NCBI GenBank assembly: GCA_039801225.1
Contig: JBDRUH010000005.1
Coordinates: 21,504-51,680 of the forward strand
Direction of reading: 5' to 3'
Source of the DNA: a candidate division WOR-3 bacterium
GTDB lineage: Bacteria > Hydrothermota > Tepidihabitantia > Tepidihabitantales > Tepidihabitantaceae
DNA: 30,177 nucleotides
The position numbers were made by a program. Of the stretch, positions 3,001-9,000 are shown one piece after another (position 1 is the first letter of the stretch; every line of letters begins with the position of its first letter).

Positions 3001-6000
3001 TGGGTTACGAAGTAGCATCAGTTGAAAAGGAAAAGTGTGGGTGGGATTTGGAAGCCACAAAAAATGGAGAAACACTAAGGCTTGAAGTCAAGGGTCTTTC
3101 CCAGGAGGAAATCTGCTTTGAATTAACCCGAAATGAATATACCGTGATGATTGACCACAATGATACTTATAGAATATGTGTTGTTACTAATGCATTGAGT
3201 AAACACCCATTGTTACGAATTTTCTCGTACTATCCTAATCACAAATCGTGGATAGCTGATGATGGGAAGAGGTTGCACATTAAGAAAGTAAATAGACCTG
3301 TTTATAACTGCATATGTAATTAGGTACTTGCTTGCGGATATTTCAACCAGTTTGACCATATCAGCAGTTTAATCACAGAAAAGGATATAGGACTAAATTT
3401 ATTATTATTTACTCACCGTTCATTTAGAGCCAGAAATAGAGAAAAATTAACGCACAAATATGTGGATTTTAAGGGGCGATTTGCCAAGGTGGTCGCTTTG
3501 CGCCCTGCCAAGGCAGAGTGCTATATAGAGATTAGGAGACGACTCCCTAATTCGTTACCGTGAAGTGGGAACAGATGACGGACGACCGTGAACCGTGACC
3601 GTGACGGAGGACGGGGGACGGAGGACGGAGGGGATTGTTAACCAGAGACCTCAACCGTGCCGGGAGGACCTTCTATTACTTCACCGATTATCGGTGCGAT
3701 GAGCCCGGCATCACTTGCCCGCTTTTGATACTCTTTTGCTCTTTCCGGGTTTAATGCAATCAATAGCCCGCCCGAGCTCTCCGACTCAAAGAGCAGGTTC
3801 TTTAATTCTGGCGAAACCGACCTCCGCCATTCCACCCATTTGCCAAATGAGTCTTCATTCATCAATACCCCGGGGTCAACAAGGGTCTTTGCCAGTTCGC
3901 GCACTTTGGGTAAAAGGGGTATTTTCTCAGCATACAATCGGATTCGGACACCAGAGGCTTGTGCCATTTCTTGAGTGTGCCCCAAAAGTCCAAAACCGGT
4001 AATGTCAGTAGCCGACGAGGCGAAACAGGCAAGCATTATCTCTGCTGCGAGGCGATTTAACTGCATCATTGAGGTCTCGGCAGTCTTTTTTAGTTCTTCG
4101 TCAACCTCGTCAAAGGTCATCATCGCCTGAGCAAAGACGCCGGTGCCCAGCGGTTTGGTGAGAATCAAATGGTCGCCAATCTTTGCTTTGGCGTTGGTAA
4201 TAATCCTTTTCGGGTCAATTTTGCCGGTAACCGCCAGTCCATACTTTATTTCTTTCTCGTTGAAGGTATGACCGCCCACCACCACCGCCTGCGCCTCTTT
4301 TACCGTATCCTGACCGCCGCGTAAAATTTCTTTGAGAATCGCTTTATCCAAAGGCGCAGGAAAACCTATTACATTTAATACGGTTAATGGTTCACCACCC
4401 ATCGCATAAACATCGGAAAGGGAGTTCGCCGCGGCAATCCGTCCAAAGGTGTAAGGGTCCTCAACCATTGGTGTCAGCAGGTCAACGGTCTGGACCAGTG
4501 CCAGCCCCTCGTTTAAAAGAAATACCCCGGCATCGTCAGCGGTGTTAATCCCGACTAAAAGCCTCGGGTCGGTTGTCTGCTCCAACCCGGCTAATGCCTG
4601 CGCCAACTGCGCCTTGCTGAGTTTTGATGCTCAGCCGGCACAGGTTACCGTTGCCAGTATGCCGCGTTTCGCCATTTTTACTCCTAATTTTTCTCTTTAC
4701 TTCTTAGAATTCGCACTTCACCCTTGCGCTGGGTTAGACCGATCGTATCAAAGTAGTTAAGGAGCGGAATGATGAATTTTCTGGTGGTATTCAGCGCCTG
4801 CCTGATTTCTGAGGTGGATAACTCAGATTTGCTTTCAAACATTTTTTTAATAATTTCCTCGGCGGTCTTTATCGCACTAAAGTGCATCCAAACCTCATCG
4901 CCCAGGTCAATTGCCACCCCTGATTCCAAGAGGGCGGTTTTTATCCGTTCTCTTAAGTTCGGTTTGACAGTGGCAAGGAGTTCACTTGGCGAAGGAGGAC
5001 TCCACTTTGCCTGTTCCAGTGTTGAGGCTAACCGGTCAAAAGCCTCCTTCTCTATCGGCGTGAGATTCAATTGATGGCTTGCCAACCGGACCTTTTCCCC
5101 CTCGCAAACCACCTTACCTTCGTCAATAAGTGTCTTTATTATTACCTCAAACAGGGGTGCGGTGAGACCGAGTTTTGCCCGCAATTCGGCGCGCTTTATC
5201 CCGAGGCGCCAGGGGTTTTTCTGGTGAAATTCGGATAGGGTTTTCAATGTCTCTTCTTTTGCCCGGGTAAAGTTTTTTTGGTGAATTAGATACTCCTTGC
5301 CTTCCCATTCAAACTGGTGCACCTTTCCCTCTCTTAAGAGAAGGTTTACCATCATCTGGGCAGACTCCTCAGTAATCGTCAACTCCCGGGCGATACCTGG
5401 TAGCGTCCGGGTCTCAAAGCCGATTTTCAAGAGATGCTGTTCTAATACCGCACCTTTTTCGCCCGAGGCAATTTCTTTTAATCGGGCGATGGTAACGGGA
5501 TTGAACCGCCTTTCTTTAACAGCGTTAGCCTCTAAAACCACGCCGCCACCAATGGTTTGCGGTGGTGAGTAATGCCGGATAACATAACGGTCGTTCCAGT
5601 CACAGACAATCGGTTTTTCGGTGCGAATCTGAACTAACGCCTCCTCCCCCGGGGCGAGTTCTTTTTTATCAAGTAGACACACCTGGCACATAACTTCGGC
5701 GGTGCCGATATGGAGGTGGACCCGGGTCATATGCCGGAGGGAGGTGAAGGCATCCTTCAAAAGATAACAGGTGGCGTTAAAGATTTGAGTTGGACGGTAA
5801 TAGTTGGGGGTAACCAAAACGCTGCCCCTTTCCACCATTTCCGGCTCTACACCCTGGAGGTTGAAGGCTGCCCGGTCGCCAATCCCTGCCTGTTCAACCG
5901 GCTGGTTGTGCTTCTGAATGCCCCGCACCCGCACCTCAATACCTTGAGGAAGTAGTTCCAACCGGTCACCGATTCGGCAGACACCAGACAAAACCGTTCC

Positions 6001-9000
6001 TGCCACTATCGTGCCAAAACCTTTGATGCGAAAGGAGCGGTCAACCGGTAAACGGAAAATGCCCCGGTCCGGCTTCGGTTCTAATCGCTGGACCATTTCC
6101 TGGATAGCATTTTTTAACTCCGGGATACCCTGACCGGTGAGCGCCGAAACCATCACTATCGGCGCATTTTCTAAGAATGAACCAGCCACCAAATTCTGGA
6201 CATCCAGCCGCACCAGTTCTAACCACTCCTCATCCACCAGGTCAATTTTGTTAATCGCTATCAGCCCTTTTTTAATTCCCAGGAGCCGGCAAATCTCAAA
6301 ATGTTCCTTTGTCTGGGGCATTACCCCATCATCGGCCGCGACAACTAAGAGAACCAGATCAATGGTGCTGGCGCCGGCAAGCATATGGCGAATAAATTTC
6401 TCATGCCCCGGGACATCAATAATGGTAATGTCATCACCGAGGAAGGCGAAGCCGAGGTCGGTCGTCATTCCCCGCTCTTTTTCCTCTTTCAGTCGGTCCG
6501 GGTCGGTGCCGGTTAGCGCCTTTACTATCGCGCTTTTACCGTGGTCAATATGACCGGCGGTGCCAAGGACATAATGCATTAGAGCCTCTTTCTCCCTTCC
6601 GCGCCGGGTATGCCCAGTTCTGAGCGGTATTTGGTGACGGTCCGGCGGGAGATGTTAATCCCTTCCTCTTTCAGTTTTAAACAAATCTCCTCGTCCTTGA
6701 GCGGTTTTTGTTTGTCCTCATTTTCAATCAAGAGCCGGATTTTTTCCTTAATGCTCTCGCGGGATTTGTCACCGGTTCCCCCTTTGAAGAAATACTTCAG
6801 GGAGAATATGCCGTAATTGGTCTCAAGATATTTGCCACTGATCGCCCGTGAGACCGTTGCCGGATGGACTTTTAAGAAATCGGCCGCATCCTGGAGGGTG
6901 GTCGGCTTGAGGTGCTCTGGTCCATAAGAGAAAAAGTCCTTTTGCCTTTGCAGAATAAAGTCTACCAGCCGGCGTAACAGGTTGCGCCGGGACTCTATCG
7001 CTTTAAGGAACATCATTGCCCGACGGACCTTTTCCCGGGCAAATTCTACCTGTTCCTTAGAGAAATTTTTCGGCTGTGCCAGTATCTCTAAGAAACGCCG
7101 TGAGACCCTCAACCGCGGAATGGTCTCATCCTGGACAACCACCACCAGTTTGTCTTCCCGCCATTCCACCGAGAAGTCCGGGGTAATATAGTTAACTGCG
7201 CTGGTTGTGAACTGGCGTCCTGGTCTTGGCTCAAGGTTGAGGATTCTTTTAACCGCCTCTCTGACCTCCTCCTCACTGGCATTGCATACCTTCACCAATT
7301 TGTCCAGTTGTTTATTTTTCAGTAATTCCCAGCCCTCACGGAGCAAACGACACTCCAGCGCCTCCGGCGGGTAACCCTTCAATTCCAGTTGCGCCAAAAG
7401 CGCCTCTTTTACCCCGGAACAGCCAAAGCCCCCGGGCGGAATCTGGGAAAGGGCGGAAAGGACTCGCTTTACCCGCTCAATTTCCACCCCCAATGTTTCT
7501 GCCAGTTCCTCCGGACGAACCGTGAGGAAGCCATCTTCATTCAGCCACTCCACCACCTGTTCAGCAATTCCGGCGTCTTCAGGCAACACCTCTGCCTGGA
7601 GTCGGGGTAAAAGCGCCTCCCGAAGTGTGGCCACCGGATTCGGCGCATACTCCTCGCCCGGTAATGCTTCGTTGCTACTTAGCAGGTATTCGCCGCTGGG
7701 CACTTCCCAGGCATCTGAAGGGATAAGTTCGTTAAGGGAAAACTCTTCAGCGGTGTCAATGAGTAAACCTTCTTCGCCCTTCAATACCGGTTCCTCTTCA
7801 TTCGCGAGCGGTGATTCTACCGGTTCAGTATGGGGCGCTTCAACATTTATTTCCTCAGCCGGCTCTAACGCCGGGTTCTGTTCCAGTTCTGCTTCAATTA
7901 GTTGCTCCAGTTCTATTGTCGGTAACTGAAGGAGTTTCAGGTTTAGAATCAATTGCGGGGTGAGAATTTGTTCCTGGCGGAGGAGATGCCTCAGTTCCAT
8001 CGTTCCTCTCCTTGGTGATAGTTCATATCCGGAACCTCTCGCCTAAATAAACCTTCCTCGCCTGTTCGTCCTTAACCAGGTCTTCGGAGGTGCCGGAAAG
8101 AAGAATTCGGGCGTCAAACATCACATAAGCCCGGTCAGTAATCTCTAAGGTCTCCCGAACATTGTGGTCGGTAATCAGGATGCCTAAACCTTCATCTTTC
8201 AGGCGGCGAATGATGTCCTGAATTTCCGCCCGGACAATTGGGTCAACACCGGTAAAGGGTTCATCCAGGAGTAGAAAGGCGGGACGGGAGGCAAGCGCCC
8301 GAGCGATCTCCACCCGGCGCCGTTCACCCCCGGAAAGGGTTCTGGCCTTTTGATTTCTGAGGTGCTCAATATTCAGTTTTCTTAAAAGTTCTTCAACCCG
8401 CTGGGTTTGCTCCGCGCGGGAAATTCCCAACATCTCCAAGATTGCCCGGATGTTTTCCTCCACAGTAAGGCTACGAAAAACCGATGGTTCCTGAGAAAGA
8501 TAACCAATGCCGAGCCGTGCCCTTTTATAAACCGGCATTCGGGTTATGTCCATTCCGTTAAAGAGGACTTTCCCCGACTCCGGTGTAATAAAACCGGTAA
8601 TAATGTGGAAGGTGGTTGTTTTGCCCGCACCATTTGGACCTAAAAGTCCCACCACCTCTTGACGGGAGAGTTCTAAGGTAACCTCATTTACCACCCGGCG
8701 TCCCTTGTAAGATTTTACCAATCGTTCGGCAATTAACTTCATCTACGGTTTTCCTGCTCTGGTCATGGCAAGTTTCAAAGAAGTAATCCCAACATCAAAC
8801 TCTGAACTCATTTGTCCGCTGGCAGGGGATGCGCGGACAAGTTTTCCTAAAATAAGGTCTCTTACTTCAATCCGTTCAATTGCACCCTCGGTGAGAATAA
8901 GCGCGATACTTTTCCCCTGAACTTCTACCGTTTCGCCCGTTTCGGTGCGATAACTTCCCTCGGCTTTGCCACAGAGGGTAACTTTTTTGACCGCGCCATT

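Follow-up and report, generated by a model that had tools for sequence, protein, structure and literature searches.

Catalogued bacterial selenoproteins are mostly thioredoxin-fold proteins or other redox enzymes, and the bacterial system that decodes UGA as selenocysteine (Sec) is built from selA, selB, selC and selD. The genome studied here (G000) is that of an uncultured WOR-3 (candidate division) bacterium of small genome size, found in hot-spring metagenomes, and its assembly is 88.84% complete. As in the bacterial system, its four components are present, SelD is of Sec type and selB and selD are adjacent; it differs in that a Cys-type SelD is also kept and in that selB and selD follow rpoN and lpt genes.

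Several described families resemble the selenoproteins of this organism. The Omp28-related selenoprotein NF045500 corresponds to the UxxC-containing "Hypothetical protein GOS_C" listed in Table 1 of PMC13188914; one lipoprotein of the genome shares with it the Omp28/thioredoxin-like fold, an N-terminal UxxC and a lipoprotein-type signal. GH74 xyloglucanases (5fkq, 2ebs, 2cn3) consist, like a second protein, of two tandem seven-bladed BNR propellers. For a third protein, the FG-GAP/VCBS (integrin-alpha-like) propellers are the relevant comparison, as its modelled fold appears closest to integrin alpha and BBSome propellers. According to the account of the SAO system by Haft and Gwadz (10.1101/2022.07.06.499078), SaoB and SaoC carry a vicinal CU exposed extracellularly, for which binding of heavy metals or organometallics was proposed. 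The FG-GAP protein resembles them in having Sec adjoining Cys in a protein predicted to be exported, but its order is U-C and not C-U, it has another fold and no homology, and it is encoded outside an ABC transporter context.

The selB–selD locus and the Sec-decoding machinery

The window, the whole stretch of DNA that was analysed (30,177 nucleotides), contains the following features:

3638..4675, minus strand: selD, Sec form (selenide, water dikinase), 345 codons with one UGA, translated with TGA as U
4631..4633, minus strand: UGA for Sec at SelD residue 15, motif G-U-A-S-K, from the read-through translation
4574..4630, minus strand: selD stretch after the UGA, the expected (putative) site of a bacterial SECIS hairpin
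4684..6579, minus strand: selB, selenocysteine-specific elongation factor, from Pfam domains
6579..8000, minus strand: rpoN (sigma-54), with Sigma54_AID, Sigma54_CBD and Sigma54_DBD
8023..12849, minus strand: upstream of rpoN, genes for an lptB-like ABC ATPase (ABC_tran), LptA-like (LptD_N, weak) and LptC-like (LptC) proteins, and pyrG (CTP_synth_N)

The in-frame TGA (4633-4631) interrupts an ORF that directly follows selB, in agreement with the survey's finding of a Sec-form selD beside selB. The SelD protein matched TIGR00476 with 343.2 bits (cut-off 125) and has AIRS and AIRS_C domains, and a genome scan with the same model returned the Sec-type gene at 336.9 bits with one TGA inside the match. 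Its loop sequence (...TCAG-U-ASK) places Lys after Sec in the arrangement UxxK, the name given to the SelD motif in Table 1 of PMC13188914. The orthologue in the relative G015 has a TGA in the same column, with flanks identical at 14/20 and 18/20 residues. Among the 41 related genomes searched, SelD was detected in 37, and 47 of 54 matches contain a TGA, the majority thus being of Sec type. Small hairpins were predicted in the stretch after the UGA, with a fold (-15.6 kcal/mol, z -0.59) no better than that of shuffled sequences.

The selB product combines an EF-Tu-type GTPase (GTP_EFTU, 121.8 bits) with Beta-barrel_SelB (55.1) and the C-terminal winged-helix domains SelB-wing_2 (53.0) and SelB-wing_3 (55.3). 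Its stop is separated from the selD start by 8 bases with AGGAG in between, and its start codon is overlapped by the last base of rpoN. The pair forms the tail end of a row of envelope-biogenesis genes on the same strand and, judging from the spacing, the rpoN/lpt/pyrG row may be co-transcribed with it. Elsewhere in the genome lie:

C1:13935-15278: SelA, TIGR00474 570.6 bits (cut-off 267.9)
C14:15786-15880: tRNA-Sec, detected with aragorn and with Rfam RF01852 (74.6 bits, cut-off 47)
C39:16-936: Cys-type SelD, no stop inside, loop G-C-A-G-K where the Sec form has UGA

The bacterial Sec-decoding system (tRNA-Sec, SelA, SelB, SelD) is complete in this genome, and all the components previously reported, including both SelD forms, were recovered with aragorn, Rfam and family models. 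TGA also serves as an ordinary stop in about one third of the genes (425 of 1325 crude ORF calls), similar to the share counted before (380 of 1183). The Cys-type SelD could supply selenophosphate without itself needing Sec. In relatives, this paralogue adjoins Omp28-family genes, a methyltransferase and a corrinoid/MtaA/RACo set.

Predicted export of the selenoproteins and cytoplasmic candidates

A dicodon scan covered 20,660 TGAs of the genome, and all read-through frames were compared by BLAST with the complete 1.88-Mb genome of G015 in both directions. Outside SelD, the following genes are considered:

C7:12406-13197: Omp28-like thioredoxin-fold lipoprotein, 264 aa, U-x-x-C, TGA at C7:12538
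C43:7925-9178: FG-GAP propeller, 418 aa, Ig-like/T9SS-type tail, motif LPYG-U-C, TGA at C43:8225
C35, minus strand: GH74-like double BNR propeller, about 736 aa, T9SS tail, motif LEGSG-U-GNAELF, TGA at C35:13988
C9:45071-45835, minus strand: Omp28-related T9SS protein, cut-off 3' part of the gene, with the contig end preceding the Sec codon

We consider it highly probable that a complete Sec system is maintained here whose assembled UGA-Sec sites outside SelD all lie in exported proteins, namely the FG-GAP, Omp28-like and BNR proteins and, probably, the C9 protein. Translation showed a signal or lipoprotein sequence at the N-terminus of all four, three of which end in a T9SS-type domain (Por_Secre_tail or FlgD_ig). 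The BNR tail matched TIGR04183 (29.2 bits, cut-off 23) and PF18962 (38.1 bits) and the C9 protein matched TIGR04183 (41.5 bits), while the FG-GAP tail matched FlgD_ig only (27.9 bits, cut-off 27) and resembles the tails of other T9SS-domain proteins of this genome. T9SS components were detected as well, PorU at 420.1 bits (cut-off 420) and six PorV-family matches above the 90-bit cut-off. Since every one of these proteins has an N-terminal signal and three of the four a T9SS-type domain, an envelope theme is supported and the proteins are predicted to be exported; the extracytoplasmic placement already proposed for the FG-GAP and Omp28-like proteins fits the signals present in both.

The earlier claim that the usual cytoplasmic selenoenzymes are missing holds in part. 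None was found: no Molybdopterin-domain gene appeared in the profile search, neither SelU nor Rdx was found in the genome, and scans with the AhpC, Trx, Grx, Trx_2 and Redoxin families gave no match with an internal stop, the three AhpC/TSA and two thioredoxin matches reported before included. The claim is weakened, and the statement that only exported proteins use Sec is less firm than the envelope theme itself, because the assembly is incomplete and 12 relatives have an HdrA2 match that contains a TGA. This family gave 20 matches above its cut-off in 19 of 41 genomes, and 12 of the 20 matches hold a TGA. In G015 the TGA (...DCAI-U-ILAPK) aligns with a Cys of the best match in G000, a paralogue of 43% identity. 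Cytoplasmic selenoproteins, HdrA2 being the likeliest, may therefore be hidden in the approximately 11% of the genome that is unassembled, which would make envelope-only use an artefact of incompleteness; this is a serious contender, although we judge it the less probable view. No HdrA2 orthologue is present in the assembly, not even as a fragment at a contig end, and three relatives are likewise devoid of an above-cut-off match (G008 and G009 have none and the best of G010, 945.8 bits, falls below). G000 is the smallest of the genomes sampled from its family and is also missing other genes that relatives carry, such as the corrinoid methyltransferase cluster; real loss of HdrA2 is therefore plausible.

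The Omp28-like and beta-propeller genes

The TGA at C7:12538, which the survey had assigned to a selenoprotein gene, is conserved in each of the best 16 Omp28-like matches, and in the alignment U takes the place that the first Cys of the C-V-Y-C motif has in paralogues lacking the TGA, so that the family shows a Sec/Cys pair. A bacterial SECIS was taken as a hairpin that is conserved, begins no more than a few tens of bases 3' of the UGA and is backed by covariation. In this family the hairpin has 8 pairs, 4 of them compensatory, and is 96.6% paired, a result reached by 0 of 500 shuffles. The gene overlaps the start of one encoding an exported TlpA/AhpC-like CxxC protein. The C7 protein falls within the Omp28 family in the wider sense, where a selenoprotein branch (NF045500) is already catalogued. 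With 21.9 bits for the C7 protein and 39.6 bits for the UGSC form of G015 against a cut-off of 200, both are distant branches and not members of NF045500 by the curated threshold; the UGSC form has, in addition, a T9SS sorting domain.

The BNR gene on C35 contributes a third conserved in-frame TGA within a coding frame, absent from the earlier count. Its TGA is flanked by residues identical to those of G015 (16/20 and 17/20), a single TGA is held by 47 of 56 homologues in relatives, and the same motif with U recurs in all 22 copies found at 19 loci in named MAGs, among which are one Ca. Stahlbacteria and one Hyd24-12 MAG. Every contig covering the site in four independent runs has the same letters there. 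Downstream of the UGA the nucleotide sequence hardly varies, its hairpins being conserved with 1 compensatory pair, and an invariant CGN-x-C lies about 20 residues upstream of Sec. The protein resembles GH74 enzymes in structure (Foldseek E 1e-26, TM about 0.58) and profile (E 1e-25 to 1e-19); at 16-19% identity and with a T9SS tail it is likened to them by fold and profile only and is not filed as GH74, and the Sec loop and CGN-x-C are limited to the BNR Sec branch.

The MAG copy of this gene is broken by a deletion of about 66 codons and a frame change at C35:14409. It could be a true pseudogene in the strain, in which case the working exported set would consist of the FG-GAP protein and one or two Omp28-type proteins, and a 113-base contig of run X2, which spans the junction with one difference, suggests that the broken form may exist in some cells. 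Against this, an intact N-terminal piece (P0128, 406 aa, ending ...EGSG) was found at 99% identity, and a 1738-base contig of run X1 departs from the MAG exactly at the junction and continues in frame with residues that match P0128; these sequences indicate that an intact allele exists. The junction falls between two near-identical BNR repeats, and such repeats are a typical spot for repeat collapse. A pseudogene is thus possible but doubtful.

The FG-GAP gene on C43, the other one named previously, also has its in-frame TGA conserved in relatives: the 27 matches at E <= 1e-56 in 40 relatives and G000 each have one, as do all 93 matches obtained at E <= 1e-30 when 272 genomes of the phylum were searched, and the G-U-C column is invariant in the alignment. 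The protein matched PF13517 (54.5 bits). Compared with other FG-GAP/VCBS propellers it is distinguished by the vicinal Sec-Cys, placed in a low-confidence loop of the structure model (pLDDT < 50 at residues 102-104), and by a TGA in all homologues found. A hairpin of 16 pairs lies 3' of the UGA and is 93.2% paired, versus 24-52% when the partners are slid; its covariation is weak (score reached by 75 of 500 shuffles) because it is nearly invariant. A Cys version was absent from the 93 phylum matches and the best 120 database proteins. None of the latter includes the region encoded upstream of the TGA: 119 are post-TGA pieces of 271-309 aa and the remaining one is a distant match of 568 aa and 32% identity.

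The classical Sec/Cys pair is therefore missing from both propeller families, since all 93 FG-GAP matches have the TGA and TGA-less BNR relatives have no Cys at the Sec column, either lacking the loop or having Ser or Thr there. This, together with public gene calls that split both genes in two and the common use of TGA as a stop, would suit a stop yielding two products or a Sec-independent read-through. Such a reading is very improbable, as the TGA column is fixed in 93/93 and 47/56 homologues down to about 30% identity, both flanks are strongly conserved with a continuous fold across them, no BNR start codon with a ribosome-binding site occurs within 60 codons after the TGA, stable hairpins lie at the distance expected of a SECIS, and SelD is widespread and mostly Sec-type in the relatives. 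UGA is thus most likely read as Sec in both propellers.

The C9 gene is probably a fourth selenoprotein gene, its Sec codon lying outside the assembly: orthologues carry U-G-S-C, and 34 of 35 among the matches listed in the relatives have the TGA, the sole exception being the copy of G000 itself, cut by the contig end. That exactly two selenoprotein genes exist besides SelD, as was first concluded, can be dismissed as a count of TGA sites: C43 and C7 stand, and if only intact genes assembled in full are counted the number is indeed two, as the BNR gene is frameshifted in the MAG and C9 has no visible TGA, but the conserved C35 site, the in-frame X1 contig with its intact allele and the C9 orthologues make three demonstrable TGA sites and one probable. 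The genome thus has at least three, and probably four, predicted exported envelope selenoproteins.

A possible role of Sec at the cell surface

Both propeller families are absent from the 119 families tabulated in the 2026 selenoprotein review (PMC13188914), and public databases list them under candidate division WOR-3 as ordinary proteins in truncated form, public annotation systematically splitting their genes at the TGA. The present result amends the earlier selenoprotein count and indicates where genome incompleteness limits the claim. In the envelope, Sec would act in redox or in chalcogen or metal chemistry. A more speculative proposal, to which we give limited credence, is that WOR-3 bacteria use Sec mainly at the cell surface, where Sec-only propellers, apparently T9SS-exported and carrying either a vicinal Sec-Cys or a single Sec close to a CxxxC, would bind chalcogens or thiophilic metals outside the cell, or transform them. 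In this proposal the Omp28-type UxxC proteins, the linked second SelD and the corrinoid methyltransferase set of relatives would form a selenium-scavenging route supplying the Sec system. The linkage of SelD to Omp28-family genes hints at a possible route of selenium uptake.

The propeller families offer concrete targets for asking why Cys cannot replace Sec. Large Sec-containing beta-propellers with no known Cys form would extend Sec use to further folds and cell locations, in an organism where a standard Sec system has apparently been retained largely for secreted and surface proteins.

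Selenocysteine machinery of the window and the genome

The window encodes a selenocysteine (Sec, U) form of SelD next to SelB, and the remaining components of the Sec machinery are found on other contigs of the assembly (1.50 Mb in 72 contigs, 88.84% complete), in which the window corresponds to C5:21504-51680.

Sec machinery (window positions, unless a contig, C, is named)
3638-4675, (-): selD, Sec form; the ORF from 4675 to 3638 encodes SelD once the TGA at 4633-4631 is translated
4684-6579, (-): selB, with an EF-Tu GTPase domain, SelB beta-barrel and two SelB winged-helix domains
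4684-12849, (-): pyrG, LptC-like, LptA-like, lptB-like, rpoN and selB, a packed row ending in selB-selD
C14:15786-15880: tRNA-Sec (Rfam RF01852, 74.6 bits)
C1:13935-15278: SelA (570.6 bits)
C39:16-936, within C39:4-1044: second SelD, Cys type, G-C-A-G-K, with Cys at the Sec place of the first SelD

The window SelD carries Sec in the motif TCAG-U-ASK, contains both AIRS domains and scores 343.2 bits with TIGR00476 (cut-off 125). The end of rpoN overlaps the start of selB, the start and stop codons running into each other, and 8 bases separate the selB stop from the selD start, with AGGAG between them; the Sec genes may be co-transcribed with the genes for LPS transport. Just downstream of selD (41-3323, +) lie three ORFs, one for an Eco57I-type restriction-modification methylase, a small one of unknown kind and one with a NOV_C domain; at the border of the Sec genes they may constitute a mobile or defence island. 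Neither a tRNA nor an Rfam match was detected in the window, and tRNA-Sec was the sole Rfam match in the four loci searched.

The machinery listed by the survey (tRNA-Sec, SelA, SelB and two SelD) was located in full, SelU was not found in this genome, in line with the survey, and its statement that TGA is a normal stop was borne out: TGA terminates 425 of 1325 crude ORF calls and is therefore an ordinary stop, not a reassigned codon. A TGA is held by 47 of the 54 SelD matches in 41 genomes, so this order generally has the Sec trait.

In relatives, the second SelD paralogue adjoins two Omp28-family genes, one of them with MAM and T9SS (secretion system) domains. In the related genome G015 (locus L132 = G015:C5:20001-40000, 3878-12108) it also adjoins a SAM methyltransferase and a set comprising a corrinoid protein, an MtaA-type methyltransferase and a RACo activase. 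Judged by coordinates, at least 12 relatives have like neighbours. In the genome under study this SelD is located at a contig start and the corrinoid genes are missing. The neighbourhood may represent a module for selenium acquisition or (de)methylation.

Screens for selenoprotein genes

Selenoprotein genes were sought by three independent screens. The first assigned a dicodon coding score to both flanks of all 20,660 in-frame TGAs that had 8 or more open codons on each flank. The second compared every frame read through a TGA with the complete genome of G015 (1.88 Mb, same family) by BLAST, and the reverse. The third scanned the own genome with family models reading through stops. A later filter on the first screen kept the 224 sites whose frame outscored the other five on both flanks. 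C43:8225 ranks first in the coding scan and is without an orthologue in G015. Two-sided homology to G015 across a TGA in coding frame was restricted to five sites.

Sites with two-sided homology
selD: the Sec codon of the window gene
C7:12538: Omp28-like protein
C35:13988: BNR propeller
C1:15317: boundary of the gene before selA
C68:5629: gltX (C68:4409-6022, -, only copy)

The site before selA is the stop of the preceding gene. The TGA in gltX corresponds to Leu in the 70%-identical G015 orthologue and no strong hairpin was seen after it; an error in sequencing or assembly, or a variant of the strain, is probable in this essential gene. Other candidates were discarded as well. The 55-codon ORF at C21:5739, whose TGA aligns with Cys in G015, lies antisense to a conserved membrane protein of 93 aa and is its shadow, and the high scorers on C65, C54, C34, C39, C22 and others are adjacent genes in one frame, whose G015 orthologues end and start at the TGA. 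The TGA at C41:2997 falls in an unalignable stretch of a gene with a gap, and the G015 ORF is uninterrupted, which marks the gene as decayed rather than as a Sec gene.

Decaying gene
C41:2602-3285, (-): DUF559/MTES_1575 nuclease gene, likely decaying; internal 36-residue gap and TGA against the intact G015 orthologue

With regard to cytoplasmic selenoenzymes, no match was obtained in the Molybdopterin and Rdx scans of this genome, and no stop occurs inside the matches to AhpC-TSA (3), Thioredoxin (2), Glutaredoxin (2), Thioredoxin_2 (2) and Redoxin (3), in agreement with the survey on Molybdopterin, AhpC/TSA and thioredoxin genes. Its claim that such enzymes are absent stands insofar as none was found, but the assembly is incomplete and relatives contain a TGA-bearing HdrA2. 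In G015 the TGA of this gene aligns with a Cys of the HdrA paralogue of our genome, and 19 of 41 genomes have matches over cut-off, 20 in all, 12 with TGA and 8 with TAG or TAA. The genome under study has no HdrA2 match over cut-off, its best match being the paralogue at 43% identity, and the TGAs flagged within HdrA-like matches of its cluster on C12 are ORF-end stops; at 88.84% completeness, the orthologue may be either lost or unassembled.

Three selenoproteins and a probable fourth, predicted to be envelope proteins

Apart from SelD, the survey had counted two selenoproteins, the C43 propeller and the C7 lipoprotein. Both are real; the count is too low, as there are three demonstrable Sec sites and one probable one, with C35:13988 and a gene on C9 to be added.

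Selenoprotein genes (the one on C9 probable)
C43:7925-9178: FG-GAP protein, 418 aa, with signal peptide, FG-GAP repeats (PF13517, 54.5 bits) and Ig-like tail (FlgD_ig)
C35:13988, (-): in-frame TGA inside a BNR/Sortilin-type propeller with Por_Secre_tail
C7:12406-13197: Omp28-like protein, 264 aa, lipoprotein-like, with a signal sequence ending in invariant Cys-Ser and a U-P-Y-C motif
Last 765 bases of C9: Omp28-related protein with T9SS tail, C-terminal 255 residues

In the FG-GAP protein Sec is residue 101, within LPYG-U-CVG. Exactly one TGA is present in each of 27 matches at E <= 1e-56 (40 relatives and this genome) and in 93 of 93 matches across the phylum (58 of 272 genomes), and the Sec column is unchanged throughout a 12-sequence alignment. 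The UGA is followed by a 16-pair hairpin, 93.2% paired compared to 24-52% with slid partners; covariation is weak because the hairpin hardly varies. The predicted model is an integrin-alpha-like propeller (pLDDT 78.2) with the Sec loop at low confidence. A SurA-like chaperone gene lies directly upstream. Among the best 120 database relatives, 119 are pieces of 271-309 aa that start past the TGA and the other has 568 aa (32% identity); those with a name are annotated, in candidate division WOR-3, as FG-GAP, VCBS or T9SS proteins, or else as hypothetical.

In the BNR propeller, missed by the survey, TGA aligns to TGA in G015 with flanks identical at 16/20 and 17/20 positions. One TGA occurs in 47 of 56 matches (41 genomes, E <= 1e-30), and in a scan of species-representative genomes U is there in all 22 gene copies of 19 loci, including MAGs (metagenome-assembled genomes) labelled Candidatus Stahlbacteria and candidate division Hyd24-12. 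The context at ten loci is W-A-L-E-G-S-G-U-G-N-A-E-L-F-K/R-S-T-D-G-G, an invariant C-G-N-x-C lies about 20 residues upstream in the Sec branch, and the bases 3' of the UGA are almost invariant and contain two hairpins. TGA-less relatives, including the paralogue on C6, have no Cys at the Sec loop, which is missing or has Ser/Thr; an Opitutia homologue is likewise without U. The predicted model of the intact orthologue from the related genome G001 (pLDDT 82.3) is nearest to GH74 xyloglucanases, two seven-bladed propellers (TM about 0.58), suggesting a likeness of fold.

The BNR gene of this assembly has its N-terminal 224-codon piece, with signal peptide, in another frame, and about 66 codons are missing. 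One 1738-base contig of the hot-spring run X1 departs from the MAG exactly at C35:14409 and then stays in frame, and a 99% identical public protein of 406 aa has the same signal peptide through to EGSG, including the missing segment and the residues of the X1 contig, which shows that an intact allele exists. The MAG junction is spanned in run X2 by a contig of 113 bases. The form in the MAG is a variant with a deletion or a collapsed repeat. At the TGA, contigs of four 'hot springs metagenome' runs contained no other letter, and no RNA run was listed for this stretch. At the Sec codon and hairpin (positions 2442-2513 of locus L008, C35:13941-14012), many unrelated contigs of 1.4-2 kb from the four runs match just 50-70 bases, and summed depth reaches up to 77, compared to about 9 alongside, pointing to many paralogues or organisms with a common nucleotide segment.

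The Omp28-like protein of C7 has a TGA in all 16 best matches in relatives, and TGA-less paralogues have the first Cys of C-V-Y-C in its Sec column; the alignment thus identifies a Sec/Cys pair of the classical kind within a CxxC motif. The UGA precedes an 8-pair hairpin with 4 compensatory pairs, whose pairing or covariation score was reached by 0 of 500 shuffles. Matches to the Omp28 lipoprotein model and to NF045500, 'Omp28-related selenoprotein' (21.9 bits, cut-off 200), are weak; Table 1 of a 2026 review (PMC13188914) has the latter under 'Hypothetical protein GOS_C, UxxC'. At its stop the gene overlaps the start of the next, which encodes an exported, TlpA-like AhpC/TSA-Redoxin protein carrying C-V-N-C. 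An ORF ending in an aromatic residue, a trait of outer-membrane barrels (C7:11034-11786), precedes the selenoprotein gene, and a DUF6029 protein (C7:13711-14499) follows next after the TlpA-like gene; the group may be an envelope operon.

The C9 gene is probably the fourth. The orthologue in G015 starts with a signal peptide and carries U-G-S-C at residue 32, and 34 of 35 family matches (41 genomes) hold one TGA, the sole exception being the C9 copy, cut off by the contig end so that it begins at residue 84. The UGSC protein gave no match to NF041046 at E <= 0.01. The 74 database homologues measure 185-307 aa, nearly all 260-307 aa; four of five inspected, of 285-298 aa, have a Met start just past the motif. 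Where given, names are 'Omp28-related outer membrane protein' or 'T9SS type A sorting domain-containing protein' of candidate division WOR-3, or 'hypothetical protein'.

Predicted export and relation to known families

N-terminal signal sequences in all four proteins and T9SS-type C-terminal domains in three suggest that the four selenoproteins would be exported, supporting the envelope theme proposed by the survey. A PorU match in this genome just reaches its cut-off (420.1 bits), and six matches to the PorV family exceed theirs.

Literature searches pairing selenoprotein with Omp28 returned nothing, and those pairing WOR-3 with selenocysteine nothing related by title among the matches listed. 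FG-GAP, BNR, propeller, Omp28 and T9SS were not mentioned in the available text of the 2026 review and of the Haft and Gwadz preprint. Neither an FG-GAP/VCBS nor a BNR/sortilin/GH74-like propeller is among the 119 families tabulated in section 7 of that review, a comparison whose scope leaves aside candidates present only in Haft and Tolstoy 2025, judged solely via this table, in Deng et al. 2026 or in supplements. The most interesting part of these results is the pair of putatively obligate-Sec propeller families, FG-GAP and BNR.
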